Counted from the first letter of the stretch, positions 9,051-39,146 are shown. The stretch: 56,674 nucleotides of DNA from a virus (IMGVR_UViG_3300037826_000110:1-56674); one strand, 5' to 3'. Made by a program: numbers and translations. The notes: generated by a model from the sequence alone, not told the origin.

Positions 9051-9062
9051 GAACAAGCGTTC
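9051..9062. promoter_or_regulatory. LexA (SOS) box, GAAC-N4-GTTC
   Basis: GAACAAGCGTTC, just upstream of the tail tube gene. Confidence 0.55.
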
Positions 9063-13371: not shown

Positions 13372-13391
13372 ATTATTTCCTGGGAAATAAT
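13372..13391. promoter_or_regulatory. NBS-like palindrome 2
   Basis: ATTATTTCCTGGGAAATAAT, beside the capsid SD. Confidence 0.85.
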
Positions 13392-14935: not shown

Positions 14936-14951
14936 CGCTATTCCTCCAAAC

Positions 14952-15010
14952 AAAAAACCGGGGCCGCCTGCATTGCTGCAGACAGCCCCGGTTTTTTCCT
15001 CACGTCGGGC
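14952..15010 (-). terminator. Late-leader conserved motif plus intrinsic terminator (copy 1)
   Basis: GCCCGACGTGAG...CCGGGGCTG/CGGCCCCGG-TTTTTT just before the protease SD. Confidence 0.75.
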
Positions 15011-15022
15011 TATATTATCTAC

Positions 15023-15051
15023 ACTATAGCACAAACGTTCTTTTTGTGCAA
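15023..15051 (-). promoter_or_regulatory. Sigma70-type promoter with LexA-like box in the spacer
   Basis: TTGCAC-17-TATAGT; GAACGTTTGTGC at 15029-15040. Confidence 0.6.
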
Positions 15052-15052
15052 A

Positions 15053-17161
15053 TCACAGCCAAACCCACCGCCCGTTCACTTCTTCCTCCAAGTGACAGCG
15101 GCAGCGTCCGTCGCACTCTGTGCCATACCCGGGCAAAGTTCCACCTGTCGTTGAAAGCATCGCACTCATAGAGGGGTAGGTACGATCTCCGAAGCGCAGG
15201 CAGGTAGGGCAATGCTCAGCCAGCGGGTCCCATTCCCAACGCACGGCGCCGTCCTCTTGGTCGTACTGCCGGCGCTGATAGATCCCGCTCCAAATCCCCC
15301 GCCACACGTGCCCCGCGTACAACTCCGCGCGGGAATAACTCTGTGTCGCCGCTTTCACCGCCTCGGTGACCTCAAAGATCACCTCTTCACGACGGTCCTG
15401 CTTGAGTAGAAGCATGATCGCCGCGATGCGCCCCTCCAGTGTGCCGGCAATATCTCCAAATAAGGACGGCCGCCCTTCGGGATTCTCACGGCGCAATTCC
15501 CCACCAGTCTCATAGCCGATCCACGAATCGGCCAACTGAATCTCTTGCTGTAGGGCCATCAGTTGCTCCGGTCCCCCGGAGGGCTTACCGAAGCCCATCC
15601 AGAAGGCGGCCGCGATGTCCAGCAGGGACTTTTCGCGGAAGAGCAGCAACCCGGCCAGGATCAAGTCATCCAGCGTCTCACGTACCTGGGTTGCCGTCGC
15701 GTCCTCGCCCAGATCGGCGACGGTCTCGGCGGTCTCGGCGGTCCAGGTCTCGATATTCTCACGTTGGGCACTGGCATTTTCCTCCGCCAGTGCCTCGTAC
15801 TCTTTTGGGCGCTGGGCGGGGGGCGGGTGCTGGCCGTCGGCAAAGTGGAGCAAATTATTTCCTGGGAAATAATGGGCCGCTTGCGGTTCCTCCTCCTCGG
15901 CGACCTCTTCTTCGTCTTGCACCGGCTCCGGGCGCTCCAAAGCCTCCTCCGGGGGCTCCGGCATTCCCGGAATTAGTGAGCGCAGGAAGGCTTCTGTGCG
16001 CATGTCGGACGTGAGCAAGCGCGCGCTTGTCAGCGTGCCAATGTATTGCGCAATCTGCGTCAGGTCCAAACTGCGCGGGGAGGAGTGGCGCAGCTCGGGT
16101 AGAGCCGTCAGACCGGGGAAGTCATTGTAGCGGAAAAGATACGGGATGGCGTGACGGTTGAACTGCCCGGCGATATTATCCAGATACGCCTCTACGGAGA
16201 GCACAAAGGCGTCCAACAGTGTCTCGGCCAGGGCCTGGGTCCCTACGGAACGCAAGCCCAGGAGGAGAAACTGCGCTAAGATAGCGCGTGCCATCTCGGA
16301 GTCCTTGCGCATGATAGTGTTGCTCATGGTGGTATCGACGTTACCCTCCGGGCCGCCGAGATCCAGATCCCAACCCGAGGGCATCACCGCGCCCATCAGC
16401 TTGTCATTGTAGATGTTCTCTACCAGGCCCTCAGCCTTGGCCTCGTCGGAGTCCTCGCCATCCTCCGTGCGGGTGGTCGCGGTTTCTGGCAACGTGACGC
16501 GGGGGAACCCGGCCCAGCGGCGATACAGGCCGATGCCCTCCACCTGCTCCAGGCGACGCTTGTATTGCCAGGGACGCACGGCCGGGCGGTAAATGCTCAC
16601 GCCTTCGGGATCGTCACCCTCTCGCGAGGTGCGGAAGAGCACGCTGCGCTCCAGCGGGATCAGCACCGGCGCGCCATCCAGGCGGTTTTGCCACATTCCC
16701 AGCAGGTCGCCGTCGGTATCGTATTGCCAGCGGTTGAGCGTCTGTTGCGGTCGCAGGGCGATTTTGCGATACCCAACGCGGCCGTCGTCGAACTTGGACT
16801 GTGACGGCCGGCGGCGCTTGAGTACCATCTCAAAGTACGCCCAACCAAACGGAAACATCAAGCACACATCCGAGATTAGATCTGAGAATGACAGGCTCAT
16901 ATCATTGAATGCCGACCAAGCAAACTCTGCCGCCTCGCGGTCCACGTCCTCCTCGCCCCCGGCCTCGCAGTGCCAAGAGACCTTCCGCACCATCAAAGAG
17001 AGCGTCAGGTACATCGCCGCCGCGGTCGGATCGGTGCGGCGCATTTCGTCATATTTGCGGATACCGTTTAGGCCCCGTAACGCAGGATCGGATTCGACGA
17101 GTAGTGAATCCCCCCACTGGGACCGTCCGGTCACGCCTAATTGCTTAAATGCACTGGGCAT
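15053..17161 (-). CDS. Portal protein (Mu gp29/DUF935-like) fused to a MuF-like minor head domain
   Basis: Follows TerL; G...FE.V, P.G.S.YR, I.RAILAQ motifs; acidic linker, then C-terminal HCPTC...C..RCRC. Confidence 0.85.
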   Translation of the reverse strand: MPSAFKQLGVTGRSQWGDSLLVESDPALRGLNGIRKYDEMRRTDPTAAAMYLTLSLMVRKVSWHCEAGGEEDVDREAAEFAWSAFNDMSLSFSDLISDVCLMFPFGWAYFEMVLKRRRPSQSKFDDGRVGYRKIALRPQQTLNRWQYDTDGDLLGMWQNRLDGAPVLIPLERSVLFRTSREGDDPEGVSIYRPAVRPWQYKRRLEQVEGIGLYRRWAGFPRVTLPETATTRTEDGEDSDEAKAEGLVENIYNDKLMGAVMPSGWDLDLGGPEGNVDTTMSNTIMRKDSEMARAILAQFLLLGLRSVGTQALAETLLDAFVLSVEAYLDNIAGQFNRHAIPYLFRYNDFPGLTALPELRHSSPRSLDLTQIAQYIGTLTSARLLTSDMRTEAFLRSLIPGMPEPPEEALERPEPVQDEEEVAEEEEPQAAHYFPGNNLLHFADGQHPPPAQRPKEYEALAEENASAQRENIETWTAETAETVADLGEDATATQVRETLDDLILAGLLLFREKSLLDIAAAFWMGFGKPSGGPEQLMALQQEIQLADSWIGYETGGELRRENPEGRPSLFGDIAGTLEGRIAAIMLLLKQDRREEVIFEVTEAVKAATQSYSRAELYAGHVWRGIWSGIYQRRQYDQEDGAVRWEWDPLAEHCPTCLRFGDRTYPSMSAMLSTTGGTLPGYGTECDGRCRCHLEEEVNGRWVWL
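15854..15873. promoter_or_regulatory. NBS-like palindrome 3
   Basis: ATTATTTCCTGGGAAATAAT, in the portal-MuF linker. Confidence 0.85.
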
Positions 17162-17204
17162 ATCATCCCCCTTATTGCCTGTAATCAATGTTATAGGTTA
17201 TTCA

Positions 17205-18674
17205 TCAGCCCCATGGGCTGTTTTTCTGCAATCGTTTATGTGATGACAGCGGATTAGCTGTCGGTTGTCCCCCGGCTGTAATGGCCAAGGCCCATGCCCA
17301 GAACTTATCCGCGTGGTGTTTCTCGTTGCGTTCCGTGTCGAAGCGCGAAAGCTTGCCGCTAGTAGTCGTGCGCTTGATACTGTGAATTTGATAGGCGATA
17401 TCCCGATCCAGGGGAAGCGGGGTATTACCGCGCTCGGCCTGTACCCGGGCCTCCACCGCCCACAACTCCTTATTGGCGTTGGTGAAGTCCACGCCCTCGG
17501 CCTTGCCAGTGCGCATCAGATTCTCTGCTAGCTGAGCGCCAATCCCGTTTTGGTCGATCAGGATCTTGGTCACCGGCAGGCGCTTGATGATCTCGCGCAC
17601 GCAACGCTCCTGATCGTCATACGGCACGCGATCCAGGCTCACCGAGAAACGCAGGGGGAGCCTTCCCGCTGTGGAGAGTCCCACTAATGCCAATTCCGAT
17701 AGGTCACGCTTGCGTCCGATGTCCATCCCCCCGGCGAAGGCCGTCTCGATTTCCTTGCGCTTGATAGCCAGTTGCACGTCGCGAATCAGATCCAGGGCCT
17801 CATCTACGTTACGCGCGTGCCAGAACTTTTCTACGGCTGGCGTCTGATTACGCTTGATCAGCTCCCACGAGATCCACGCGGTAAGCTCATCCACCCAGGC
17901 ACACTCATATTCCTGCTGGAAATCCTCCAGGAACATGTTTTCAAAGATATCAATAAGGGCTGGGGTGCCGAAGGCGTATACGCGCTCTTCGGTGGGCATG
18001 GACGGCGCGACGTTGGCGGCTAGTTTGACGTTGGTGCACAGGGCTCCGACTGTCCACCACGGCAGGATACGACGATGCTGATCGTAGCCCGGATACGCCC
18101 GCATCTGCTGCGTGACGATCTCCCAGAATAGCCCCCTGGCCCCTAGTGGCGAGGAACCGATGCGAATGTAGCCGTCACCTTTGGTGGTCGCAGGAAGCGC
18201 CGCGCGATATACCTCACGGTCCAGACCGTGGGGGTAATGCGCCATCTCGTCGAGGTAGATACGGGCACGTGGTTTCCCACGCGGGGGACGGCAGGGATGG
18301 GAGATCAGCCGTGAACCATTGTCAAGTTCTATCGCGGAGCGGCTGGCACGTTTGAGGCCCGGTCGAACGGGCGGATCCAGGGCCTCGATAGTGGCCTTGG
18401 CGTAGCGGATTTTCTCTTGGGCCTCCTCGCGGTTGATGGAGACGAAGATGTGTGGGGTGTCGGGGTTGAGGATGCCGTCCACTACGGCGTCCAGCGCAGC
18501 GGTGAAACTCCAGGCGATCTGACGTGCTTTGACGTCGATGCCAAAACGTTCGGTATTATTAAGGTACAGTAATTGAAACAGCTCCCAGTGTGCGTCCGGT
18601 ATCCCAGCCGCAGTAGGGAGATCGAGAAACTCTACGGCAAATTGCGCCTTGGCTGATAGGTCCGTAAGGCGCAC
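17205..18674 (-). CDS. terL: Terminase large subunit (Mu gp28-like)
   Basis: KARQIAWS Walker A, IYLDEMA Walker B, GMDIGRKRD, HADKFWA. Confidence 0.93.
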   Translation of the reverse strand: MRLTDLSAKAQFAVEFLDLPTAAGIPDAHWELFQLLYLNNTERFGIDVKARQIAWSFTAALDAVVDGILNPDTPHIFVSINREEAQEKIRYAKATIEALDPPVRPGLKRASRSAIELDNGSRLISHPCRPPRGKPRARIYLDEMAHYPHGLDREVYRAALPATTKGDGYIRIGSSPLGARGLFWEIVTQQMRAYPGYDQHRRILPWWTVGALCTNVKLAANVAPSMPTEERVYAFGTPALIDIFENMFLEDFQQEYECAWVDELTAWISWELIKRNQTPAVEKFWHARNVDEALDLIRDVQLAIKRKEIETAFAGGMDIGRKRDLSELALVGLSTAGRLPLRFSVSLDRVPYDDQERCVREIIKRLPVTKILIDQNGIGAQLAENLMRTGKAEGVDFTNANKELWAVEARVQAERGNTPLPLDRDIAYQIHSIKRTTTSGKLSRFDTERNEKHHADKFWAWALAITAGGQPTANPLSSHKRLQKNSPWG

Positions 18675-18676
18675 AT

Positions 18677-19189
18677 CTAGTCCTCCAGAGTGTCGGCGGC
18701 TTCTAGTAGCTCAGCAGCCTCATGCAAGCGCTGTTTGCGTTCGTCTTGCCACTGCTCGGCATCCCACAGTACGTGATCAATCGGGCTGTCGCCATTGGTC
18801 ATCTCGTACTCTTGTTTGATACCGCGTAACAGCGCCTGCAAATCCTTCTCGGCCCAGGCTGCGCGACGCACCTCCTGAATCTCGGCCAGCAGGCGCGCGT
18901 TGCGCTCGTGGATGTCGGCTACAGCATACTTGCGCCAAGCCTCCTCCACAGCTTGCAAATCATGGTTAATGGTACCCAGACTGTAAGGCTTGCCGGTGTC
19001 GGGGTTTTTGAAATCACGCAGCGCGGCCACAATCTCGCGTTGCGTCAATCCCCGCAATGACAACGCCGCCACCCTGCGGCGTCGTAAATCAATTAAAGCA
19101 GCACGGCTGTTCAGTTTCATGGCGTTCAGTGCTGCTTCACGGAATGCCTCGCCGTCGTCCAACGGCGTAATGTCGTCTGAATCGGGCAT
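18677..19189 (-). CDS. terS: Terminase small subunit
   Basis: HTH (RRRRV..L..RGLTQREI) immediately upstream of TerL. Confidence 0.7.
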   Translation of the reverse strand: MPDSDDITPLDDGEAFREAALNAMKLNSRAALIDLRRRRVAALSLRGLTQREIVAALRDFKNPDTGKPYSLGTINHDLQAVEEAWRKYAVADIHERNARLLAEIQEVRRAAWAEKDLQALLRGIKQEYEMTNGDSPIDHVLWDAEQWQDERKQRLHEAAELLEAADTLED

Positions 19190-19210
19190 GTTGCCCTCCT
19201 ACGATATTAT

Positions 19211-19948
19211 TCATGAGACGATCATAACCCTCTGCGTGCGCTTGACACGAATGAATAGATTCAGTCCCTTCTTGCTGCGGCGGATTTCTAGATGCTTACC
19301 CCATTTACTCTTGAGATAAGCTAGCTCGCGCTCGTTACGTTCACCGGAGCGCATGTGCGCGTTCCCTCCGGTGTTGTTAAAGCGCTGATGCATTATGGCG
19401 CAACGCTCGTCCACAAGCACGCAACGGTATTTTAGGAGTGCTTGGAGACAATAGTCGATATCCGCGCGCAGCTTCAACGAGGTGTCGTAGCGCAGCTCGC
19501 GTCCAATAATTCCAATCGCGCCCCCGACCCAGTTGTTAAGGGAAAATGGGTTCTGGGGGTGAAACTTGCGTACATCGCCACTGTGCTGTGAGAAACCAAA
19601 CACACAGGTCCCGAGGCCCCTGGCGATCCGGGCCGCGTTCTCAACCATTTGCAAAGCTACGTCAGGATCGACGACAGTCGCGGCGGCGGTGGTGCGTCCG
19701 GCGTTCATGCGCAGGTGGCTGACGTCGTCATCGACCATAAAGACGGTCTCCTCTGTGATATTATCCAGGATCCACTGTCGCAGGGGACCAATCCCCGCCA
19801 CGCTCGACGGGTGCGTGATAATTTCTGCATCCAGGACGGCATAGTCCTCCGCTTCGGCCTCATCTACGCACACGGCGGCCGAGGGGAACAGCTCAAGCGC
19901 CTTCCCACATAACGCTACTCTTCGTCGACTGGGGATGATGATGCGCAT
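19211..19948 (-). CDS. GT-A fold glycosyltransferase (TAGT/GREB1-like), putative DNA modification
   Basis: IIIPSRRR, RQWILD, VFMVDDD, DIDYCLQ motifs; ATG 19948 with GGAGG. Confidence 0.7.
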   Translation of the reverse strand: MRIIIPSRRRVALCGKALELFPSAAVCVDEAEAEDYAVLDAEIITHPSSVAGIGPLRQWILDNITEETVFMVDDDVSHLRMNAGRTTAAATVVDPDVALQMVENAARIARGLGTCVFGFSQHSGDVRKFHPQNPFSLNNWVGGAIGIIGRELRYDTSLKLRADIDYCLQALLKYRCVLVDERCAIMHQRFNNTGGNAHMRSGERNERELAYLKSKWGKHLEIRRSKKGLNLFIRVKRTQRVMIVS

Positions 19949-20670
19949 TGCTGTAAGACCTCCAAAAAGCGCGTGCCGTCCATCACGCGACATAACCCGA
20001 CTTTCCTCCGCAGATTGCCTTTGCTGGATTTATACGAAAAGGCACGCTCCCCGATGCCCAGTACCTCGATAGCCCGTGCCCAGTCCCAGGTGGTGCGAAA
20101 GACCAACATCACATAGTCGTAATGCTCGAAGGGTTGCAGTCCCATTTCGGGGATAGTAGCGTCGTCCGCTTCCTCAGCGATGGCCTGCTCCTCCGCGCTC
20201 AGCGCCTCGTACATCAGTTGATCAACCTCGCGCTGCTGGAAAAAGGCCACGATGTCCAGGCCCTCCTCGATATCAGCCGCGATCTGCCCGGCGTCCCAGG
20301 CTAGGTTGAGCTCGGAGGTGCGGTTATCGGCGTAGGCCAGGCTACGCGCTACCCCGCCGTCCTCCTCCAGATCCAGATCCTCACGCTGATGAACGACGAG
20401 GCCGTCGCCAGGCGTGCGCACGACGTAGATGGGCATGCCACCGAGGTCGCGTACCGTCTCCACGGTCTTGTTGCCAGAGACGACGCGCCCCTTGCGATCT
20501 GTCAGCACGGAACGCCCCGGGCCATAGCGGGCCAGGCTTTCACGCAAGGCCCACTGTCCACGACTGGTTCCCAGATTCGCATTGTGCTCATCGGAGTGCA
20601 AGTCGTCTAGCGAGGAGATCTCGGCGATCTCCTCTTCTAACGCTGTGACAAAGTCTTGTTCGTCGCTCAC
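19915..20670 (-). CDS. ParB-like N-terminal-domain protein (terminase-associated)
   Basis: NAN, SL.RYG.GRS, V.SGN.T, AYADNRTSEL..W. Confidence 0.75.
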   Translation of the reverse strand: MSDEQDFVTALEEEIAEISSLDDLHSDEHNANLGTSRGQWALRESLARYGPGRSVLTDRKGRVVSGNKTVETVRDLGGMPIYVVRTPGDGLVVHQREDLDLEEDGGVARSLAYADNRTSELNLAWDAGQIAADIEEGLDIVAFFQQREVDQLMYEALSAEEQAIAEEADDATIPEMGLQPFEHYDYVMLVFRTTWDWARAIEVLGIGERAFSYKSSKGNLRRKVGLCRVMDGTRFLEVLQQCASSSPVDEE

Positions 20671-20686
20671 AATTCAATCCTCCAAC

Positions 20687-20742
20687 AAAAAAGGGGCTGC
20701 CCCCATCGCTGGGAACAGCCCCGGAATCCTGTCTCGCTGGGC
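20687..20742 (-). terminator. Late-leader conserved motif plus intrinsic terminator (copy 2)
   Basis: GCCCAGCGAGA...TTCCGGGGCTGT/GCAGCCCC-TTTTTT. Confidence 0.75.
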
Positions 20743-20752
20743 TTACACCTTT

Positions 20753-20781
20753 AGTGTATCACAATTGATATAGTAAGGCAA
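20753..20781 (-). promoter_or_regulatory. Sigma70-type promoter of the packaging/head operon
   Basis: TTGCCT-17-TACACT with extended TG. Confidence 0.65.
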
Positions 20782-21354
20782 TTATTCCGCCAAGATCTTG
20801 CAGATAGCGACGGCGTCTTCCATGGAAATGCGATCCAGCTCGAGGTTGACCGTCACCTCCTCGGCGGACGTGCCGACTTCATGCGGATAGGCACGGATAC
20901 GATAGCGCCGCGCGTCACCGGGCAGGCTGTAAACACACGGATTATTGGTATCAGCGTGCAGGATTTGGGCGTTCAACATCTTGGCCAATCTATCCAAAGC
21001 CGCGCGCTTGAGCCTGTCACTGCGGCGCTGGCGATAGCGTTGCCGCAAAGCACCCTCCGAGATCTGGTAGTAATCGGGCAGGAAGCGGCGCATAATATCG
21101 CCGGCAATGCTCTCCGGCGCGCGGGTGGCGCTGCAGGTAATGCGCGGGCTTTCCTCCCAGCGATAAAATTCCTGGGGATAGATCCCGTGCACAGCGATGC
21201 GTTTCCGTTTTTCCTGTCTGATGAAAAATCCGACATCTGGATCGTCTAGGTCATCGCGACGCAGAGTGGCGTGATGCTCGTTAGCGTGTTCTGTGCACAC
21301 GCGCCAGCCATCCAGATGCCGCGCTATGGCGGTAGCTAGTTCTGTGATATTCAT
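20782..21354 (-). CDS. Hypothetical protein
   Basis: 190-aa ORF with SD, coupled to upstream ORF. Confidence 0.7.
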   Translation of the reverse strand: MNITELATAIARHLDGWRVCTEHANEHHATLRRDDLDDPDVGFFIRQEKRKRIAVHGIYPQEFYRWEESPRITCSATRAPESIAGDIMRRFLPDYYQISEGALRQRYRQRRSDRLKRAALDRLAKMLNAQILHADTNNPCVYSLPGDARRYRIRAYPHEVGTSAEEVTVNLELDRISMEDAVAICKILAE

Positions 21355-21593
21355 ACGTCACCTCTCCCTGGACGACGGAAACGAAAGACGTTACCGCCAA
21401 ACTTAACCTCCGCGATGCATTGCACGCTATGCGGATGACGATATTTGCAGTCTCGTAGCAAAACATCCGCGAAGCGCAGCATATAGCCCAGACACTCCAC
21501 GGCAAAGGGTTTGTCGCGCAGCCGTTGCCGGATGTCCTGTAAGTCCTCAAATGATACTTGCGCTTTATGATTAAGCGCGTATACTGTAGTCAT
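21351..21593 (-). CDS. Hypothetical protein
   Basis: CACGGAGGT SD before ATG 21593. Confidence 0.6.
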   Translation of the reverse strand: MTTVYALNHKAQVSFEDLQDIRQRLRDKPFAVECLGYMLRFADVLLRDCKYRHPHSVQCIAEVKFGGNVFRFRRPGRGDV

Positions 21594-21621
21594 CTCAATC
21601 ACCTCCGTGGTTGAGTAACAC

Positions 21622-21663
21622 GAGGGGGACGGGCCGCCTTACCCGTACCCCCTCATTTTTTAT
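21622..21663 (+). terminator. Hairpin plus T-tract on the + strand (antisense to local genes)
   Basis: GAGGGG.ACGGG...CCCGTACCCCCTC-ATTTTTT. Confidence 0.55.
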
Positions 21664-22085
21664 TAATGTGTATGCCGTTGATGGTGGCTCAGCGTTTGGC
21701 TATCCACCACCGTATCAATCCCCGCAATCTCAGACTGGTAGATTTTTCCGTAGTGATCCGAGTGCGGCAATCCCGACCGGATCAGGAATATGCAATGATA
21801 CCGCACGCCCCCCCCCGGAAATACCGGCGTCCCTCCACTGATAATGATGGCCTTCGGAAAGAAATTGCCGTCAATCCGATGCAGACCGCGCTTGATCCAC
21901 ACCACCACAAATCGATCCTCTGCCGGTTTCAGTTTATCCGGCGTCACCGCGCACGCCTCAAATTTCATTTGCCGTGCGGATGTCTGACGGTTGATGCGCA
22001 GCACACCGTCACAACCCCGCTGCGGCGTGTTGCTAAACAGCGGTAACCCCTCGCCTTGCTCAAACATATAACCCTGCTTCTTCAT
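21663..22085 (-). CDS. Hypothetical protein
   Basis: CACGGAGGT SD, 140 aa. Confidence 0.55.
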   Translation of the reverse strand: MKKQGYMFEQGEGLPLFSNTPQRGCDGVLRINRQTSARQMKFEACAVTPDKLKPAEDRFVVVWIKRGLHRIDGNFFPKAIIISGGTPVFPGGGVRYHCIFLIRSGLPHSDHYGKIYQSEIAGIDTVVDSQTLSHHQRHTH

Positions 22086-22107
22086 CTTCTCACCTCCGTG
22101 ATATCCA

Positions 22108-22719
22108 TTAAAACATCTGTAACTGTGTTTCCGCGTTGCCGGTTGGTTGCTCCTGCCGGCGTCGCTCCCACTCCGGGGCGTCGTCTTTGCCCTGTAACCA
22201 CAACTCTTGCGCTTCCTCTGCGTAGGGATCAGTGACGTTGCCTTGCGGATCCAGACGGCAGCCTTCGTCTAACCAATACTGCACATCGCGCCCCATCGCC
22301 CGACCGCGACCCGTGTGATTGTCCAGGGCGTGATCCGGGATGTCGTGGCGCTCGTCCATAAATTCCTGCGTGACCGCACGCTGAAAGTGATCGGCGACCC
22401 TCGACTTGGGTGCCCGACTCATTAGGAGCAGGGCGTTGCCCAAGATCAGACGGCAAGTGCCATCTTTGCCGTGCGATCGAAAAAAGAAGTACTGCGCACG
22501 CAGGGCCGGAATCGTGCTTAGCAACTCCGGACTGGCGATACCAATATCCTCGTTGACGATCACCAACAGACGCCGCCATAGGTATTGTTCGTAGCGTGGA
22601 ATCAGCTCCAGTGCCCAGTACATCGCCGAGCGTTCGTCTCCCCGACGAATCTCCTTCTGGATCGCCGAGATGACCTCCAATAGTGGATGGTTGTGCTGTG
22701 TATAGGCTCTAAATCCCAT
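22108..22719 (-). CDS. RarA/MgsA C-terminal-like protein lacking the AAA+ domain
   Basis: ISA.QK.IRRGD...A.YW...WRRL.VI..EDIG.A...KSR; no Walker A. Confidence 0.75.
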   Translation of the reverse strand: MGFRAYTQHNHPLLEVISAIQKEIRRGDERSAMYWALELIPRYEQYLWRRLLVIVNEDIGIASPELLSTIPALRAQYFFFRSHGKDGTCRLILGNALLLMSRAPKSRVADHFQRAVTQEFMDERHDIPDHALDNHTGRGRAMGRDVQYWLDEGCRLDPQGNVTDPYAEEAQELWLQGKDDAPEWERRRQEQPTGNAETQLQMF

Positions 22720-22760
22720 CGTTTCTTACCTCCTCTACCTCCGTAGTTTTTATATGACCT

Positions 22761-22825
22761 GCCTTATCAATGATCGGATGGTCAATCCCGATCAGACGCC
22801 CGGCCTAGAGGCCAGGCGTTTCGGC
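22761..22825 (-). ncRNA. Type II hammerhead ribozyme 1 (U3-A8 variant)
   Basis: GCC GAAA CGCC..GGCG UC^ UGAUCGGG-loop-UCCGAUCA UUGAUAA GGC; loop UGACC pairs with 3' GGUCA. Confidence 0.9.
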
Positions 22826-23538
22826 TATGTCTCGAACCCCTTTCCCTGCTCGCGCAGGCTAATGTAACGGTTGTGGCCGATGACCATGTGATCCAGGACA
22901 TCCAGCTCCATCAGTTTCCCGACCTCCACTAATCTGCGGGTTAGCATAATGTCCTCCGGCGAGGGGTTAGGATCGCCAGAGGGATGATTGTGCGCGACGA
23001 TGATCGAAGCGCAGTTACGGCGAATCGCCCCCCGAAAAACCTCCGCTGTGCGGACCAGGGAAGTGTTGAGGCTCCCCTTATAGAGGATTTCCTTGTCGAT
23101 TACGCGATTGCGCGTGTCCAGATATAGGACCGCGAAGTTCTCTTGCTCGGCATCCCCGATGTAGGGAGTGAGGATGTGCGAGGCATCCGAAGGAGACCGG
23201 ATCTGTTCACGATCCGGCCCGGATTCCAAGGTCATGCGCACGCCCAGTTCCAGGGCCGCCATAAGGCGCGCGGCTTGTGAGGGACCAATGCCGTCGATGG
23301 CCGTCAATTGACTCTCCTCCGCCCGGCGCAAACCGTGCAACGATCCAAACTTAGCGACTAACTGATTGGCAATACTCAGGGCCTCGCCCCCCTGTACAAT
23401 TGCCGCTAGTAATTCCACCAAGTTCACGTACCGCACGCCTACCTCACGCACGCGGTTTACCGGTTTCTCGGACTCCGGTAAGTCGTCCACGCGCAATCCA
23501 GGCGGGGTATGTTGCAACATGCTCATTTGTGCTACCAT
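22825..23538 (-). CDS. radC: RadC family protein (HhH plus JAB/MPN domain)
   Basis: GIGP..A..L.AALELG; EQENF.VL.LD.RN; AHNHPSGDP.PS.ED; VLDH. Confidence 0.92.
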   Translation of the reverse strand: MVAQMSMLQHTPPGLRVDDLPESEKPVNRVREVGVRYVNLVELLAAIVQGGEALSIANQLVAKFGSLHGLRRAEESQLTAIDGIGPSQAARLMAALELGVRMTLESGPDREQIRSPSDASHILTPYIGDAEQENFAVLYLDTRNRVIDKEILYKGSLNTSLVRTAEVFRGAIRRNCASIIVAHNHPSGDPNPSPEDIMLTRRLVEVGKLMELDVLDHMVIGHNRYISLREQGKGFET

Positions 23539-23569
23539 TCTCTTACACCTCCGTGGTTTTGTATGACCT

Positions 23570-23631
23570 GCCTTATCAATGACCGGGTGGTCAATCCCGG
23601 CCAGACGCCGAGGTTATCTCGGCGTTTCGGC
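23570..23631 (-). ncRNA. Type II hammerhead ribozyme 2
   Basis: GCC GAAA CGCCGAG/CUCGGCG UC^ UGGCCGGG/CCCGGUCA UUGAUAA GGC AGGUCA. Confidence 0.9.
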
Positions 23632-23805
23632 TAATCTCTCAATGGCCTCCCAGGGAGAATAGCGATTTCGGAAATACCATTCCAAATCACGCTCCAAAAC
23701 CTCCACCCCCCAGTGCTCGGCGATATTCAGCGCCTCGCGCATGTAATCCCAACGTTTTTCATAATATCCCGCCAGGCAGCGGTAATTAAACCAATCCCTA
23801 TACAT
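23614..23805 (-). CDS. Hypothetical 63-aa protein
   Basis: GGAGGG SD; stop codon lies in loop III of ribozyme 2. Confidence 0.6.
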   Translation of the reverse strand: MYRDWFNYRCLAGYYEKRWDYMREALNIAEHWGVEVLERDLEWYFRNRYSPWEAIERLAETPR

Positions 23806-23815
23806 TCACACCCTC

Positions 23816-24715
23816 CTACTGATAGGGGCACTCGCCCGGGATCAGGGGGCTAGGACCATTGGGGAAGGACACGATCTTGTGCTGCAATAGTCCGCGATAG
23901 ATCGTCCCCGCTATCCTTGCGGCCTCATCTTCGCCCGCGTCCACCAGATCCTTGATGTAGCGCTCCATCGCGCTGGCTACCGAGCGGGCCTTGCGCATCG
24001 AAGGAAGCTCGTCATCCACCGGAATCACCCGGTCCGGTCGCGCTTCCTCCTCCGCAGCGCGCACATCCTGGACCTTGGTCATAAAGGTGGCCATATCGAA
24101 CATCGCTTCCTGCGCCTGCTCTTCCAACAATCTCGCGCAGAGCTTGCGAAACTCTTTCAGGCGCGGGGTATCCACCTCCGCCAGATAACGCAGAGCAATG
24201 CGCTGCCGATTGGTATCCAGGTCGCGAAGCGCATACGCATATTTGATGCCCATCTGCCCGTCTTTGACTAATTTCTGAGCCTCGGGCACCGTATCCAAAA
24301 GCGCCAGTCGCAAGCGCACCCGCTGAGGACTCACGTTCGCAATCTTGGCGACCTGTTTGGCGTCCCAGCCAAATTTCTCCATCCGTTTTTGGTAGGCGCG
24401 CGCTTCCTCAATCGGATTCAGTTCGTTGCGTTGCACATTCTCCAAAAGCATGACGGAAGAGGCTTGCTGATCCGAAAGCGTGCGCACCAAGGCCGGAATG
24501 GTCTCGCGCTCCAGGAGGCCAAAGGCCCGCCAACGCCGTTCACCGGCTACCACCTGAAAGCGCTCCCCCACCGGTCGCAAGGTGATGGGCTGCGCGAGGC
24601 CGTGCTGCTTGATGCTGGCCGCCAGTTCCTGCAGGCTCTCTGTATCAAAGTCCTGGCGATCATTATCGCCGGGGTCAATTAGGACCATCCGTATATCCTG
24701 TATCTGCTCTTGCAT
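23816..24715 (-). CDS. ParB/RepB/Spo0J family protein
   Basis: ELAASIK.HG..QPI, VAGERRWRA, ENVQR.ELNPIEEA; start reassigned to ATG 24715 (GGAGGT SD). Confidence 0.9.
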   Translation of the reverse strand: MQEQIQDIRMVLIDPGDNDRQDFDTESLQELAASIKQHGLAQPITLRPVGERFQVVAGERRWRAFGLLERETIPALVRTLSDQQASSVMLLENVQRNELNPIEEARAYQKRMEKFGWDAKQVAKIANVSPQRVRLRLALLDTVPEAQKLVKDGQMGIKYAYALRDLDTNRQRIALRYLAEVDTPRLKEFRKLCARLLEEQAQEAMFDMATFMTKVQDVRAAEEEARPDRVIPVDDELPSMRKARSVASAMERYIKDLVDAGEDEAARIAGTIYRGLLQHKIVSFPNGPSPLIPGECPYQ

Positions 24716-24743
24716 TCTCTCACACCTCCGTGGTTTATGATCT

Positions 24744-24804
24744 GCCTTATCAATAATCGGGCGATCAATCCCGATTAGACGCCGGGGACTCCCGGCGTTT
24801 CGGC
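24744..24804 (-). ncRNA. Type II hammerhead ribozyme 3
   Basis: GCC GAAA CGCCGGG/CCCGGCG UC^ UAAUCGGG/CCCGAUUA UUGAUAA GGC; pseudoknot covaries to UGAUC/GAUCA. Confidence 0.92.
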
Positions 24805-24968
24805 TATAACTCATGGCGTTGCGCACGTCCAAAAGCGCGCAATTCGTAGTATCCGATCACACATCCGCCCACCTCGATAGTGAAACGCTGCGCATCGCAA
24901 TACCACGCATAATCCTCAGCATCACGCACATCCTCAAAATACACGCCTTCCACATTATACAATTCCAT
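24804..24968 (-). CDS. Hypothetical 54-aa acidic protein between two ribozymes
   Basis: MELYNVEGVYFEDVRDAEDYAWYC...; GGAGGT SD; not in ORF track. Confidence 0.65.
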   Translation of the reverse strand: MELYNVEGVYFEDVRDAEDYAWYCDAQRFTIEVGGCVIGYYELRAFGRAQRHEL

Positions 24969-24996
24969 TCTTACACCTCCGTGGTTTATGTGACCT

Positions 24997-25059
24997 GCCT
25001 TATCAATAGTCAGGTGGTCAATCCTGACTAGACACTGGAAATAACCCCAGTGTTTCGAC
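24997..25059 (-). ncRNA. Type II hammerhead ribozyme 4
   Basis: GUC GAAA CACUGG/CCAGUG UC^ UAGUCAGG/CCUGACUA UUGAUAA GGC AGGUCA. Confidence 0.88.
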
Positions 25060-25092
25060 TCTGTTAAGTTTCCTACATCGGAATCAGAAGTT

Positions 25093-25325
25093 AAAAAAAA
25101 TACTACGGTTTTGATATGGACGGGTATGGTCTTTCGCTATCGAATAGTATCGTAATCCTCGCCGGTACCACACTACCGTTGCTATTTCCCACAACTGCTC
25201 CCCCGCGTTGGGAATGGGATAATTCCTCCTCCGTTCCGTCAGTCACCCAGGTTCTCTGGGCGCTTGCGCGCGTGATCGTTCCTGAATCACTGACCGGGAT
25301 TCGGGTACCCCCCATCCCCCCGTTT
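25093..25325 (-). ncRNA. Candidate structured ncRNA of unknown family
   Basis: Nested helices seen by eye, a GCAA tetraloop hairpin and a terminal U8 tract. Confidence 0.5.
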
Positions 25326-25457
25326 TGAGTTTCCGTTATGTTAAGGTTCGTTTCATCTTTGTATATATAGTATAACGCATGCAAGCGGTTTTGTATATAG
25401 GAAATTAGTACTACGCATAAAATGTAATACATGACTAAACATGAAAACTTATCTTGC

Positions 25458-25490
25458 AAAGAAATAGGCCCATCCGTAAGGACGGGCCTA
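25458..25490 (-). terminator. Intrinsic terminator of the lysis operon
   Basis: TAGGCCCGTCC-TTAC-GGATGGGCCTA-TTTCTTT. Confidence 0.75.
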
Positions 25491-25511
25491 TAGAAGGAGG
25501 GGGTGGGGAAG

Positions 25512-25892
25512 TTAGGCGGACGCTTCCCGCACCTCCACCGCATGATCGCTGATTTTCTCGATGGTCACCCCGGCCACGGCGAAGGGACCGCGCGCTGCGG
25601 AGACCACGACGTCCAGAATATCCGGCCCCATCTCGGCCAAAACGTTGAGGTAATGCTGTAAACGCGAGGGACTCGGGCGCTCCTGATCAAGTTCCACCTG
25701 CAGCGCATCGACGGTATCGCGGGCTGCCAAGCGATCCACATCATCCAAGTCACTCTGATTGAGTGCGATAATTACCTCGTCACGCCAGGCCGCATTACTG
25801 CGCTGGGCTGGGTGGGTGATTTTATCGCGTCCCACCACGTCACCGCCGATATCGACCTCCCCACCAATATCGCCAAACGTTACACCGCTCAT
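25512..25892 (-). CDS. Hypothetical protein with N-terminal GGDVVGRDK motif and helical domain
   Basis: 126 aa, coupled start. Confidence 0.7.
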   Translation of the reverse strand: MSGVTFGDIGGEVDIGGDVVGRDKITHPAQRSNAAWRDEVIIALNQSDLDDVDRLAARDTVDALQVELDQERPSPSRLQHYLNVLAEMGPDILDVVVSAARGPFAVAGVTIEKISDHAVEVREASA

Positions 25893-26356
25893 AGCTCATC
25901 CTCCAAGTCTATGTCTATCTCGCGTAAAATCGCAAACACGCGCTTGAGCGTGCCGAACTCAAACGCCATATCATCTATGTTTTGCCGAATCCACTCCGTA
26001 GCATCCCACGAACCGGTATAGGCTCGTGAAGCCCCCAGCCAGTCGGCGATCATCTCGCGGATGTAGATTTCCGGCATAGGTAGCACTTCGTTTTCGCGAT
26101 TGCGCAGGACCCAATACTGATGATGGTGCTTATTGTGGTTCTGGTGGTGGAGCCAAGCGTTCAGGTAATCGAAATCTGGCTCCCCGCGTCGTTCGCCGCA
26201 GTACAGCCTAGCGTAGGGGGCAAACTCACAAGGTAAAAATTTGGAGAGATCGTGCGTAATCCGCAACCACAGCCCGATGCGCACCCTACGCCCGGCCAGA
26301 AACACAAACCACTTATGGCGCAGCACACGCCAAAAATATCGCCAATACACGCTCAC
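25889..26356 (-). CDS. HD-like (DUF5662-like) protein
   Basis: HK..V, HDLSKF..EF, HH..HNKHH..YW, MP..Y..EMIADW. Confidence 0.75.
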   Translation of the reverse strand: MSVYWRYFWRVLRHKWFVFLAGRRVRIGLWLRITHDLSKFLPCEFAPYARLYCGERRGEPDFDYLNAWLHHQNHNKHHHQYWVLRNRENEVLPMPEIYIREMIADWLGASRAYTGSWDATEWIRQNIDDMAFEFGTLKRVFAILREIDIDLEDEL

Positions 26357-26730
26357 GTCTTATCCCTCCCCACTACATCACCATCCACGTTTACATCCCG
26401 CCCAGAGTTCAAGCGGGTCCCCACCAATACGTCCGTGTTGACGCGCGGGCCGCCACCGATGACCCGTAACAAATCTGCCAACCGCTGCGCTTCCGCTTCC
26501 CCGCTGCTCATCACGCGGGGTATAATGATGCGTTGAATTTCCAGTAGCGCGTCGATCTTCCGCTCGATACCCTGCAAGCATAAAAACATCTCCTGCTCGG
26601 CCTCCAGGCGTTGACGCTCGATTTCGGCACGCATTGCCTCGGCGTGCGCTTTTTGCTCTGTGGCCAGGATGAGTCGATCTATTTGCCGTGAAGCAACTTG
26701 GGGGCCATCAGTACGCTCATCGTTGCTCAT
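26353..26730 (-). CDS. Coiled-coil protein with C-terminal GDVVGRDK motif
   Basis: 125 aa, coupled. Confidence 0.65.
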   Translation of the reverse strand: MSNDERTDGPQVASRQIDRLILATEQKAHAEAMRAEIERQRLEAEQEMFLCLQGIERKIDALLEIQRIIIPRVMSSGEAEAQRLADLLRVIGGGPRVNTDVLVGTRLNSGRDVNVDGDVVGRDKT

Positions 26731-27469
26731 GTCTCAGCGATTCCAGCGTGTGGTTTGCTGATTCCTGGAGGTCCAGCGCTACGATATGCAGCGCTTGCCG
26801 GTAAGCAACGTACACATCGCGATACTCCTGCACCGCCTCGTCGCGCTCCACCTGCAACCTCCGCACGTGCACGTTCAGGATAGCCAACCCGTGCAGAAGC
26901 CGCGCAAAAGCAGCCACGGTCCGCGACCACGCGCAGGTATACGGTAACCCCCACGCCCCATCCACGACGATCCAGGCGATCAGAGATAAAGCGTACACCA
27001 AACGCAGATTACGCGGAGTCCAGTAATCCGAAGTCCACAACATATGTGCTAGGTAGATGTACGCGACCATCCCCGGTAGTGAACCGACCACAAACAACGC
27101 AAAAGACTCGGCCACCAAACCGCTCAGCATCGCTACCCGCCCCAACGAAATCGCCCAGACCCAGTAGGGATTGAGCGGTATATTACGAAAGCTGTACGCA
27201 GCGGCAATAATCAACAGTGGCCCCAAGGTATCCCAAGTGCATAGGATAATTACGGGCGTCTTGTGGTTTGTAATACCCTTAACGGCCATCCCGATCATGG
27301 TAATCGCGGCCAACACGTCCGCGACCTCGAAGGTTCCTAGATAGGCTAGATATTTGTGGTTGCTGATGGAGTAATAATACAGCGACCACAGGATAATGGC
27401 GAAAACCAGCGAGATCCCGGCACTGATCAGCGCCGGATAAAACCACGCACCGGGGCACCAAACATCCAT
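26717..27469 (-). CDS. Multi-pass membrane protein (about 7 TM)
   Basis: Repeated hydrophobic segments and a C-terminal coiled coil. Confidence 0.7.
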   Translation of the reverse strand: MDVWCPGAWFYPALISAGISLVFAIILWSLYYYSISNHKYLAYLGTFEVADVLAAITMIGMAVKGITNHKTPVIILCTWDTLGPLLIIAAAYSFRNIPLNPYWVWAISLGRVAMLSGLVAESFALFVVGSLPGMVAYIYLAHMLWTSDYWTPRNLRLVYALSLIAWIVVDGAWGLPYTCAWSRTVAAFARLLHGLAILNVHVRRLQVERDEAVQEYRDVYVAYRQALHIVALDLQESANHTLESLRHEQR

Positions 27470-28131
27470 TATTCTCCGTCGAAGCGAGTTACGCGCGTCA
27501 ACAGATCGGCATCCACGCCGTGAACGGCGTAAAACCCAGACGGCTGGCGAAAGTCAAAACGCCGGTCCCCGCCAAAGGTCCACGGTGCCGGCACTTCCCC
27601 CACGCAGATCTGCTCATGCAGATGCGCAGCGTACATCCCGTGATTATTGCCAATGGTCCCCACCACGTCACCGGCCTGCACGATATCGCCAGGCTTGACA
27701 TAGATCTCGTCCAAGTGCGCGCCCATCCACGTGACCAGCTCTCCCTCCGGTGTGCGTCCCAGGATGCGCAGGATCAGCCCCCAATTGCCGCCATAGTCGG
27801 CGGCGTTGATGACAATACCCGCGAAAGGCGCAACCAAGGGTTCGCCCAGGTCGGAATCGCCTCCGCTCTCCAGGTTCCAGTCCTCGCAGCGGTCGGGGTG
27901 ATGATTGTAGGGGCCATAGCGACGACTAGCTTCGTACCACGCTTTGTCGAGATTGAGGAGCGGTAACACAAAACGCTCGGCGAAGGGGATGCCGTCGGCC
28001 CCCATGGTGATGGTTACCGGGCCGATGCATAAATGCGGCTCGCCGTCGCCGGGCAAAGGGACGACGACGCTATCGCCAGGTCCTACACGCACGGGCCTAG
28101 CCGTGGAATCATAGTCCCCCATCGTCGTCAC
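27469..28131 (-). CDS. Endolysin, M23 peptidase family
   Basis: H...D, P.VAP..G.V, WG..L.I, AHLD...V..GD.V..G..IG.IG, HLH. Confidence 0.85.
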   Translation of the reverse strand: MTTMGDYDSTARPVRVGPGDSVVVPLPGDGEPHLCIGPVTITMGADGIPFAERFVLPLLNLDKAWYEASRRYGPYNHHPDRCEDWNLESGGDSDLGEPLVAPFAGIVINAADYGGNWGLILRILGRTPEGELVTWMGAHLDEIYVKPGDIVQAGDVVGTIGNNHGMYAAHLHEQICVGEVPAPWTFGGDRRFDFRQPSGFYAVHGVDADLLTRVTRFDGE

Positions 28132-28552
28132 CTGCGTAAATCGAAGGGCCTTCTACTAGGAGATCTCCGATCTCGTCATATTCCCGCCGCGGCTTGATGC
28201 CAAACTGGTACACCGCCTGTGACCCGGCCCACAGGAGAAAGCCTTGGGCCAGGGCGGCCCAGTAGGGCTGAATGGCCGTCCATAGATCTGGGGGCGTCAA
28301 TTGCAAGGCCGTCTCAGCCAGAACCGGCAAGGCAATACTGAGAATAAGAATAGTCCAATACTTGGTCTGTGAATCCAAGTTCTTGAACCACGTCATTTTC
28401 TGAAATAAGAATGCGATCACGGCTCCAGCACCCAGGCCACTGGCTACCCAATTGAGCACCGAAACGGGATCGGTAGCATCAGGTGCGGCACCCTGCGCAC
28501 AAACCGGAATCGCGATCAACGACAAAACCAACGCCAACAGTAAAGAGCGCAT
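28109..28552 (-). CDS. Putative holin
   Basis: 3-4 hydrophobic segments, directly upstream of the endolysin. Confidence 0.65.
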   Translation of the reverse strand: MRSLLLALVLSLIAIPVCAQGAAPDATDPVSVLNWVASGLGAGAVIAFLFQKMTWFKNLDSQTKYWTILILSIALPVLAETALQLTPPDLWTAIQPYWAALAQGFLLWAGSQAVYQFGIKPRREYDEIGDLLVEGPSIYAGDDDGGL

Positions 28553-28569
28553 CTCAAACCTCCCATGAT

Positions 28570-28589
28570 ATTATTTCCCAGGAAATAAT
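28570..28589. promoter_or_regulatory. NBS-like palindrome 4
   Basis: ATTATTTCCCAGGAAATAAT, before the holin gene. Confidence 0.85.
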
Positions 28590-28607
28590 TTTCCTGAGTC
28601 TGACAAC

Positions 28608-28661
28608 AAAAACGGGGCAGGCGGCTATAAGCCACCCGCCCCGGAATATTTCTCGCTGGGC
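28608..28661 (-). terminator. Late-leader conserved motif plus intrinsic terminator (copy 3)
   Basis: GCCCAGCGAGA...TTCCGGGGCGGG/CCTGCCCCG-TTTTT. Confidence 0.75.
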
Positions 28662-28678
28662 GTGAAACGAAAGCTATG

Positions 28679-28900
28679 CTATGACTGATTTACAGTGAGA
28701 CCCATCGGTTCAACTAAGTTGCGCTCGAAGTCTATAGATTGCGTTGGTAGGATTTGCTTGATCTTACCGTTGTGGATCACAATCCGCAACTCGCCGTAGC
28801 CGGTCCCCTGCATTATGCTTTTGGTATACTCCCAAAGTGCTTTGAGGTATACCGAGCGCCAAGAACTGCCTTCGTCGTTGCATTGTTCATTTTCTTTCAT
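28679..28900 (-). CDS. DUF2292/YezD-like small protein, putative regulator
   Basis: GYGELRIVIHNGKI motif. Confidence 0.65.
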   Translation of the reverse strand: MKENEQCNDEGSSWRSVYLKALWEYTKSIMQGTGYGELRIVIHNGKIKQILPTQSIDFERNLVEPMGLTVNQS

Positions 28901-28906: not shown

Positions 28907-28935
28907 ATTATACAGAACATCTGTTCGATAGGCAA
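28907..28935 (-). promoter_or_regulatory. Sigma70 promoter with a perfect LexA box in the spacer
   Basis: TTGCCT-17-TATAAT; GAACATCTGTTC at 28915-28926. Confidence 0.8.
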
Positions 28936-28957: not shown

Positions 28958-29257
28958 CTAACCCGCCCCCGCGCATTGTCTTAAGGCTATCCGCAAGCGT
29001 TGATTCTCGCGCCAAAGTTCATCAACGCGATCACGGAGCACATCCACTTCGCCCAACTCCTCAAACTGCTCGCGCATCTCCCAGTCCTGCCCTCGCCACA
29101 CCCAATAGTGATCGTCAGATATGGCTTCTATCCCCCAGGTCTTCCCGTGTTTTTCTGTACGTTTTGGTTTGCCAACACTAACCATTGAGAAAACTATACC
29201 CGTTTCACGATGTCTCAAGTAATCAGCGTTTTCTAAATCATATGGATATTCACCCAT
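28958..29257 (-). CDS. Hypothetical protein
   Basis: GGAGG SD, 99 aa. Confidence 0.65.
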   Translation of the reverse strand: MGEYPYDLENADYLRHRETGIVFSMVSVGKPKRTEKHGKTWGIEAISDDHYWVWRGQDWEMREQFEELGEVDVLRDRVDELWRENQRLRIALRQCAGAG

Positions 29258-29277
29258 TTTAAACCTCCTTGCGTAAT

Positions 29278-30036: not shown

Positions 30037-30256
30037 GCCGCGCCTCCCGCTCGGCCTGCAATCGGGCACGCTCCTGATCTACTACGCGCCATAGGTCGCG
30101 GACCTCTTTCTGCAATGCGCGCGCCTGCACGGCCAACTCGTCGAAACGCTGGCGTATCTCATCATCGCGACCGCCAAGGCGAACGACGGAGCGAATGTAA
30201 TAATCCAACGTACCCAAATCTATGTACGGATACGTGTTGTCATCTGGGTTTTGCAT
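30029..30256 (-). CDS. Hypothetical coiled-coil protein
   Basis: SD, 75 aa. Confidence 0.6.
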   Translation of the reverse strand: MQNPDDNTYPYIDLGTLDYYIRSVVRLGGRDDEIRQRFDELAVQARALQKEVRDLWRVVDQERARLQAEREARRG

Positions 30257-30264
30257 GGTTCCTC

Positions 30265-31583: not shown

Positions 31584-31588
31584 TTTAT

Positions 31589-33434: not shown

Positions 33435-33443
33435 AGTGTTCTC

Positions 33444-35633: not shown

Positions 35634-35655
35634 AATTATTTCCCAGGAAATAATT
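35634..35655. promoter_or_regulatory. NBS-like palindrome 5
   Basis: AATTATTTCCCAGGAAATAATT, immediately upstream of the Noc-like parB. Confidence 0.85.
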
Positions 35656-39129: not shown

Positions 39130-39146
39130 GCCATAGAAACTGCCTA

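Follow-up and report, generated by a model that had tools for sequence, protein, structure and literature searches.

What opens the late genes of a phage when each block of them stands behind a transcription terminator? This question is raised by IMGVR_UViG_3300037826_000110, a complete virus record of the IMG/VR database that is 56,674 bp long, with a 127-bp terminal repeat and a G+C content of ~58%; "the window" hereafter means this whole stretch. An earlier note on this DNA, made without knowledge of its origin, had proposed that SOS induction supplies a small DUF2292-like protein, here called P0001, which binds the leader RNAs of three late operons and permits read-through. The anatomy of the three sites gives good support to the first part of that reading, in which expression of the late genes depends on read-through of a terminator in the leader. 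For the second part, the small protein as antiterminator, the support is comparative and indirect, and we regard P0001 as an evenly poised candidate for the factor that stabilizes a leader hairpin and permits read-through.

Three late gene blocks lie behind a common leader motif and terminator

All three elements are present at the positions given in the earlier note, and they lie on the minus strand (Table 1). In each, the terminator is preceded by GCCC-RR-CG-W-GA, followed after 6 to 8 nucleotides (nt) by CCGGGGC. The exact identity noted between two of the leaders is that of sites 2 and 3, which have GCCCAGCGAGA and TTCCGGGGC in common, and the third leader does follow the LexA-boxed small gene directly, beginning 17 nt after the P0001 stop codon. 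The parts conserved across sites are the 11-mer (8/11 positions invariant overall and 11/11 between sites 2 and 3), CCGGGGC, GCCCC, and T5GTT, while the promoters, spacers, upper stems, and loops are unlike among the three. Because the sites resemble one another only in the motif and at the base of the stem, the likeness points to constraint rather than recent copying.

The composite pattern GCCCRNCGWGA-N4-14-CCGGGGC matches three times on the minus strand of the window and not at all on the plus strand or with a reversed control. Taken alone, the 11-mer has 4 exact matches against 1.04 expected (standard deviation, 0.89), a number reached in 0/100 shuffles; the fourth match (15759-15769, within the portal gene) is followed by neither a hairpin nor a T-run. 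Rfam returned 0 matches at the gathering score for the whole window and chance-level rows only around the three sites at E values up to 10. A likeness of CCCAGCGAGA to the PyrR-site consensus was ruled out since the Rfam models gave no PyrR match, and leader-peptide attenuation was ruled out because the leaders have no room for a leader open reading frame (ORF).

At all three sites a G+C-rich stem is followed directly by a U-run, as in intrinsic terminators. In a simple scan, no terminator of the region ranked above terminators 2 and 3, and terminator 1 was not listed, because its stem is longer than the scan counts. Folding of the full leaders gave -41.7, -33.1, and -36.1 kcal/mol for sites 1 to 3 (z of -6.7, -3.4, and -6.0 against shuffles).

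Sites 1 and 2 each stand 10 to 12 nt behind an extended -10 promoter, and the motif begins ~4 to 8 nt into the transcript. At site 1 the T-run gives way directly to GGAGGA and a TTG start at 14935, and at site 2 to GGAGGA and a GTG start at 20670. Because the ribosome site abuts the T-run and leaves no room for a promoter, the genes behind these two sites can be reached only by read-through. No promoter was found in the interval from terminator to gene at either of these sites, and none is evident in the 56 nt that separate site 3 from the holin-like gene. Nor does site 3 itself have a convincing promoter.

The leaders have antiterminator geometry

The layout of each leader is that of an antiterminator. 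Ahead of the terminator, a hairpin common to all leaders can form in which G1 to C4 pair with GGGC, C7 and G8 pair with CG, and G10 pairs with C, around an A-rich loop. Positions 5 and 6 (AG or GA) are left as a 2-nt purine bulge and position 9 (A or U) as a 1-nt bulge, and the variable positions of the motif (5, 6, and 9) coincide exactly with these unpaired positions. Because the 3' strand of the hairpin (CCGGGGC) is also the base of the terminator 5' arm, hairpin and terminator are mutually exclusive. The terminators reach -39.2, -29.3, and -30.3 kcal/mol at sites 1 to 3, and the hairpins are far weaker (Table 1), as expected if a factor must stabilize the hairpin. A bulged hairpin set against a terminator is the geometry of protein-dependent antiterminators such as the ribonucleic antiterminator (RAT)/LicT system.

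The gene ahead of site 3 has a LexA-type box and a remote DUF2292 relationship

P0001, a protein of 73 amino acids (aa), is the candidate trans-acting factor. The spacer of its sigma-A-type promoter contains a putative LexA-type (Cheo) box. Such boxes are not enriched in the window (23 with at most one mismatch against 19.6 expected; 3 exact), so the case for this one lies in its position within the promoter spacer. Two other exact copies of GAACN4GTTC occur, at 9051-9062 in the gap between two tail genes and at 49154-49165 within a 107-aa ORF. The predicted transcript start of the P0001 promoter is at or beside the A of the ATG, and since only 6 nt (GGAGGT) separate the -10 element from that codon, mRNA from this promoter would be leaderless. 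Judged from the sequence of the promoter, P0001 would be placed under SOS control through the LexA-type box.

Contigs from four DNA sequencing runs were compared with the window. Contigs of a variant strain, from a second run, skip 28,964-29,287, with four other letters between, and the 99-aa gene next to P0001, on its upstream side, is gone. That gene is therefore not the needed factor. The differences listed for the same run include an additional T, after 14951, in the site 1 T-run. Among the sequencing runs listed as containing the phage, none was an RNA run.

P0001 is probably a remote member of the DUF2292/YezD family. Here the earlier assignment holds at the level of profile similarity and falls short at the Pfam threshold. 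Comparison with 22 Bacillota DUF2292 proteins by hhalign gave 94.5% (E = 7.4e-8) over 40 columns at ~18% identity, and the Pfam model PF10055 (DUF2292/YezD) scored 19.7 bits (E = 6.5e-4) on residues 31-50 only, below its cut-off of 22 bits. The P0001 core aligns with the family without gaps (MAFFT) and keeps YG, G, and Q-I of the family pattern YG..Q..G..QI..TEK.R. An AlphaFold2 model made with the family alignment has a helix at 13-32 and a hairpin at 36-54, with a predicted local distance difference test (pLDDT) of 79-85 in the core and 68.0 overall; modeled alone, P0001 reached a pLDDT of 52.9. Among ESM Atlas neighbors, which we treat as a lead only, the nearest cluster is DUF2292 (0.83) and the nearest structure belongs to the YezD family (template modeling [TM] score, 0.57). 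When the DUF2292 alignment was compared with viral contigs, 74 stretches matched and none was confirmed.

Bacterial DUF2292 genes are accompanied by a hairpin-terminator

The family context was taken from 301 genomes of the Bacillota, the phylum of the metagenome-assembled genome (MAG) that holds L047, the best relative of the phage. PF10055 is present in 45/301 of these genomes, and 30 loci were inspected with 1.5 kb on each side of the gene. A regular expression located a YTGAC-CNG-loop-CNG-GAGGC hairpin within this reach in 18/30 loci, and a loop variant spotted by eye in locus L117 makes a 19th. The hairpin lies downstream on the gene strand in 16 loci and only on the other strand in two; eleven loci have none within reach. 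Its distance from the stop codon is 1 to 31 nt in 10 loci, 72 to 119 nt in 5, and ~1 kb in one. As in the phage, the hairpin 3' strand (GAGGC) is the start of the terminator 5' arm. The inner helix covaries (CA:UG, CG:CG, UA:UA, and UG:CA), with 98.3% of cells paired and 7 changed on both sides, and 0/500 shuffles scored as high. Rfam 15 does not contain this DUF2292-linked hairpin.

Across genomes, the pattern occurs in 24/45 of those with DUF2292 and in 15/256 of those without (Fisher p = 1.5e-13); a reversed control pattern matches 18 of the 301. In a set of five genomes there are six occurrences in total, five of which stand beside the DUF2292 gene. Several genomes have 2 to 4 copies of the hairpin (in G256, 4 on one contig), and all extra copies that were fetched (11/11) have a hairpin and then a T-run behind them. 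The first ORFs behind 15 hairpins encode ATP sulfurylase (n = 5), 3'-phosphoadenosine-5'-phosphosulfate (PAPS) reductase (n = 2), PALP enzymes (n = 2), NMT1-like binding proteins (n = 2), and one each of an ABC ATPase, a B12-binding protein, a radical S-adenosylmethionine (SAM) protein, and a SAM synthetase. This count excludes L114, which nearly duplicates L113, as well as a single 66-aa ORF and one repeated row. In L113 the order is SAM riboswitch, DUF2292 gene, hairpin-terminator, and PAPS reductase gene, a cascade that, by analogy, may be read as having the same logic as the phage module: a signal, then a small protein, then a gate.

The phage hairpin has the architecture of the bacterial one in that it lies downstream of the small gene, starts the terminator 5' arm with its 3' strand, and has a purine bulge on the 5' side. 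In both settings a small alpha plus beta-hairpin protein is encoded within tens of nt of a purine-bulged hairpin-terminator, and one protein can accompany several gated operons. The order in common is a signal-controlled DUF2292-like gene, a bulged terminator-overlapping hairpin, the gated genes, and further copies of the gate. Because module order and logic match those of the bacterial YezD modules, we take P0001 to be the most likely factor. The signal input differs (the SAM riboswitch of L113 versus a LexA box in the phage), as do the targets, which are late genes in the phage rather than sulfur genes, and the bacterial function is itself only putative. Protein and RNA of the phage both appear to have diverged from the bacterial modules.

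A proposed model for P0001-dependent read-through

We propose that the three elements are protein-dependent transcription attenuators. Each leader RNA could form either the weak two-helix hairpin or the very stable intrinsic terminator. Alone, the RNA would terminate, giving short leader RNAs and leaving the lysis, packaging, and head-tail blocks off. P0001 would bind and stabilize the hairpin, the bottom of the terminator could then no longer form, and RNA polymerase would read on. The protein would come from the end of the early leftward transcript and, after DNA damage, also from its own LexA-boxed promoter by way of the leaderless mRNA. The gate next to its own gene (site 3, with the holin-like and M23 peptidase block) would be the first that it opens, and the packaging gate behind P2 and the head and tail gate behind P1 would be opened in trans. 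We infer RNA binding by P0001, the direction of its effect, and the SOS response.

Counterevidence and alternative explanations

Several observations weigh against P0001 as the antiterminator. On the protein side, P0001 has TQSIDF where the family has TEKVRL, so that a near-invariant E and R are replaced, and it is slightly acidic (isoelectric point, 5.7). A Foldseek search of the PDB with the P0001 model gave no match at E ≤0.001 and no RNA-binding fold. No close homologue was found among 5.8 billion proteins, and a set of 1.84 billion representatives returned P0001 itself plus two long repeat proteins, which we take to be spurious. The literature searched assigns no RNA-binding role to DUF2292, YezD, or OscA, and as far as that search reaches, a DUF2292-type antiterminator does not seem to be in print. 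OscA is described in PMC2996968 as a small protein, with no function assigned, whose gene belongs to a sulfate-transport cluster.

On the RNA side, truncated leaders fold no better than shuffles (z of -1.67, -0.07, and -0.11), and the phage hairpin has no covariation support among its three copies because every paired position is invariant in them. A covariance model (R1) built from 17 copies of the bacterial hairpin returned, with filters off, 21 matches at E values up to 10, with 0/3 phage sites among them, and local searches with the bacterial hairpin model gave no match at the phage motif. No relative with the motif was found in IMG/VR with the exact or relaxed pattern, or in a metagenome scan. 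The candidates set aside in these searches were 25 IMG/VR stretches matching the exact pattern (G+C-rich, apparently coding DNA without a terminator), 2 matching the relaxed pattern (one a chance match, the other a generic terminator), and 40 metagenome stretches, none with the phage-type layout and a few of them ordinary terminators.

The relatives of the phage bear on the same question. GenBank phages and plasmids include no close relative. Portal relatives (3 loci, 33 to 39% identity) and terminase relatives (39 loci, best 67%) are mosaic, having in common with the window only the terminase, or the portal, protease, and capsid, and the motif was not found in them. The best of them, L047, comes from a MAG that has the title Desulforudis; it is a phage lying on one of the contigs, and its terminase is 67% identical. 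It has promoter-leader-terminator units before a protease-like gene (15108-15215) and before the packaging block (6303-6450), with leader sequences that differ from those of the window. PF10055 has no match in the MAG. Gating at these two positions is therefore not confined to the phage of the window, and a detectable DUF2292 protein is not always present where such gates occur. The L047 promoter and P1 of the window have GAAC(R)TTTG(Y)GCTATA(R)T in common.

The alternative that survives best, which we nonetheless consider unlikely, is that the gates are opened by another factor, either an unrecognized Q- or N-like processive antiterminator of the early operon or a host protein, and that P0001 is, for example, an SOS-induced antirepressor. 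Small LexA-controlled phage genes usually encode antirepressors, and the motif lies ~4 to 8 nt past the predicted P1 and P2 starts, where Q-type factors act; the acidity of P0001, its two missing family residues, and the similar gates of L047 would also fit. Against this, the 71 ORFs scanned gave no match to Q, N, NusG-like, ANTAR, or CAT families, and the only arginine-rich small ORF (38118-38306) is an off-frame artifact under better ORFs. A Q-type mechanism would need a promoter, which site 3 lacks in convincing form, and a processive system does not require that the motif always overlap the terminator, as it does here. The family context of DUF2292, by comparison, fits P0001.

Leader hairpins no more stable than chance, together with a trans-acting factor that is so far a candidate only, would also agree with factor-independent attenuators or insulators, that is, leaky terminators that fix expression ratios and resemble one another as copies of a duplicated cassette. 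The purine tract can pair with the U-run, as in ordinary symmetric terminators. We hold this to be improbable: a duplicated cassette does not account for conservation limited to the motif and stem base with the rest diverged, stems of -29 to -39 kcal/mol with U-runs of 5 to 6 should leak little, and sites 1 and 2 are followed by essential virion genes, ~30 kb in all, that have no promoter of their own.

A terminator-embedded element that is missing from Rfam and whose bacterial counterpart stands before sulfur genes might instead be a small riboswitch for a metabolite or signal nucleotide, with DUF2292 proteins merely coregulated. This seems very unlikely. The DUF2292 gene is mostly upstream of the hairpin and hence not controlled by it, the pattern and the gene tend to occur in the same genomes, and a 24-nt hairpin with two bulges has little room for a ligand pocket; moreover, phage and bacterial hairpins differ in sequence, and the proteins differ too. 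Finally, the conserved single-stranded 5' stretch, terminator hairpin, and U-tail of the leaders, with promoters of their own at sites 1 and 2, match the usual layout of regulatory small RNAs with a common 5' seed (GCCCAGCGAGA), but we find this account, or one in which P0001 binding favors termination, scarcely credible, as the seed has no exact complement on the plus strand, the sense of the targets of minus-strand transcripts (the near matches listed fall in coding DNA), the downstream genes would still need read-through, and an SOS-induced factor that promotes termination makes no regulatory sense.

Comparison with known antitermination systems

With P0001 as antiterminator, the phage module would resemble HutP or LicT/RAT in function and lambda Q with PR'-tR' in role, and by sequence it belongs to none of these. 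In the HutP/hut system of Bacillus subtilis and in LicT/SacY with RAT, the order is regulator gene, terminator, and regulated genes, and an RNA structure overlapping the terminator 5' arm is stabilized. Action there is local rather than processive, as in the model for the phage. The folds and RNA sites are unrelated, and these systems sense histidine or sugars, not DNA damage. No match to HutP-, LicT-, or SacY-type families was found among the window ORFs scanned.

Phage lambda (Q/PR'/tR'/6S and N/nut) places late genes behind promoter-proximal terminators. Like lambda, the window has its candidate regulator gene last in the early operon, directly ahead of the first gate, and short terminated leaders are expected. 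Unlike lambda, it has three gates with one terminator-overlapping motif, site 3 lacks a convincing promoter, and the action is likely local, not processive. The ORFs scanned gave no match to the Q family, with no search aimed at Q-like folds made, and no basic small early protein that could correspond to N was seen except the off-frame ORF, with boxA and boxB not searched with a model. Tum of coliphage 186 is a LexA-controlled small prophage gene with direct SOS input, and Tum-like proteins inactivate repressor; unlike Tum, the P0001 gene has an attenuator linked to it in cis, and further copies of this attenuator stand ahead of late operons. Among Q-type factors, BrrG of BaGTA is an example that involves several loci (10.1101/2024.11.20.624540). 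The pLS20 zipper is another type of leader attenuator.

Features of the locus and genome context

Table 1. Coordinates of the leader elements, promoters, and gated genes in the window
Feature	Coordinates	Strand	Details
Site 1	15010-14948	minus	GCCCGACGTGA GGAAAAAA CCGGGGC ...hairpin... GCCCCGG TTTTTTGTTT
Site 2	20742-20684	minus	GCCCAGCGAGA CAGGATT CCGGGGC ... GCCCC TTTTTTGTT
Site 3	28661-28603	minus	GCCCAGCGAGA AATATT CCGGGGC ... GCCCCG TTTTTGTT
Site 1 leader hairpin	14985..15010	minus	GCCCGACGTGAGGAAAAAACCGGGGC, -3.8 kcal/mol
Site 2 leader hairpin	20718..20742	minus	GCCCAGCGAGACAGGATTCCGGGGC, -6.3 kcal/mol
Site 3 leader hairpin (candidate antiterminator)	28638..28661	minus	GCCCAGCGAGAAATATTCCGGGGC, -6.5 kcal/mol
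Terminator 1	14948-14991	minus	stem 14991-14958, then TTTTTTGTTT
Terminator 2	20684-20722	minus	13-pair stem + TTTTTTGTT
Terminator 3	28603-28643	minus	14-pair stem + TTTTTGTTGT; 5' arm is the 3' strand of the leader hairpin
P0001, 73-aa gene, candidate trans-acting factor	28679..28900	minus	TAG stop 28679-28681
P0001 promoter, sigma-A-type	28907..28935	minus	TTGCCT-17-TATAAT, 10/12
LexA-type (Cheo) box CGAACAGATGTTCT	28914..28927		in P0001 promoter spacer; exact GAACN4GTTC at 28915-28926
Promoter P1	15023..15052	minus	extended -10 TGCTATAGT, 9/12; spacer with GAACGTTTGTGC, one mismatch from a LexA-type box
Candidate promoter P2	20753..20781	minus	TTGCCT-17-TACACT with TGn (TGATACACT); 8/12, not listed by scan
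Head protease/scaffold gene, Mu-like	13805..14935	minus	first of head-tail operon (~25 kb) behind site 1
Packaging block behind site 2	15053..20670	minus	ParB-like 251 aa, TAGT glycosyltransferase, 170-aa protein, large terminase, Mu-type portal
First genes behind site 3	27469..28552	minus	147-aa membrane protein (holin-like by hydrophobic segments), M23 peptidase
18-bp palindrome TTATTTCCTGGGAAATAA	28571..28588		between terminator 3 and the next gene's ribosome site; 1 of 8 genome copies

Nearly all genes lie on the minus strand, from ~39,050 to 1 and on via 56,674 to 46,015. The early control region is recognizable by its divergent consensus promoters at 39,084-39,056 (minus) and 39,147-39,175 (plus). 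The leftward early block (38,838-28,958) has a ParB-like gene, ThiF/E2/JAB/ubiquitin-like genes, and many unknown genes, followed by P0001. Behind P0001 come the holin-like membrane protein, M23 peptidase, and DNA-metabolism genes, then the ParB-like protein, TAGT glycosyltransferase, large terminase, and Mu-type portal, and finally the Mu-like protease, capsid, tail, and tape-measure genes. On the rightward side, the gene for a DnaA_N-domain protein (39695-41143) has seven internal iterons (AACGGAAAGAATTTTCCGAAAGTGG) at 40078-40394, likely the origin, and a ParM-like actin gene follows at ~41778-42749. No integrase family matched among the 71 ORFs scanned. Because an iteron-bearing DnaA_N gene and a ParM-like gene occur without an integrase match, a phage-plasmid lifestyle is likely.

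An 18-bp palindrome, TTATTTCCYRGGAAATAA, has 8 copies in the window with 0 expected by chance (7449-7466, 13373-13390, 15855-15872, 28571-28588, 35636-35653, 39113-39130, 41737-41754, and 45997-46014). Four of the eight stand just 5' of the ribosome site of the capsid, holin-like, ParB-like, and ParM-like genes, one lies between the divergent early promoters, and another is within the portal gene. These palindromes may serve a master repressor as operators scattered over the genome, or one of the three ParB-like proteins as parS/KorB-like sites.

A second type of repeated leader is a 76-nt element with four copies (22727-22802, 23536-23611, 24710-24785, and 24963-25038) directly 5' of four consecutive minus-strand genes (MgsA_C-like, RadC, ParB_N, and a small ORF), each copy containing a hairpin and ribosome site. 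The ThiF/E1-like, JAB, prokaryotic E2, and ubiquitin-like genes of the early operon cluster at 29278-34113. A hint of DNA base modification comes from the TAGT glycosyltransferase gene (19211-19993) along with genes for DUF5662 and TCAD2. Another protein, P0002, gave no family match and no solved relative.

Implications for the DUF2292 family and phage late gene control

We tentatively propose, as a possibility that still leans toward doubt, that DUF2292/YezD/OscA proteins are widespread, unrecognized, tiny RNA-binding antiterminators and that this phage uses one, released from LexA, as the sole opener of three late gates. If true, hairpin-specific antitermination would become the function of a domain that occurs, so far without an assigned role, in many bacterial phyla and in phages. 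In bacteria such as Bacillus subtilis, the YezD hairpin would then gate a sulfur regulon. It would also add a third protein-based way, besides N and Q, of timing phage late genes, and the path from SOS to lysis would be a very short circuit. A 73-aa protein with a 24-nt RNA could then serve as an orthogonal terminator switch.

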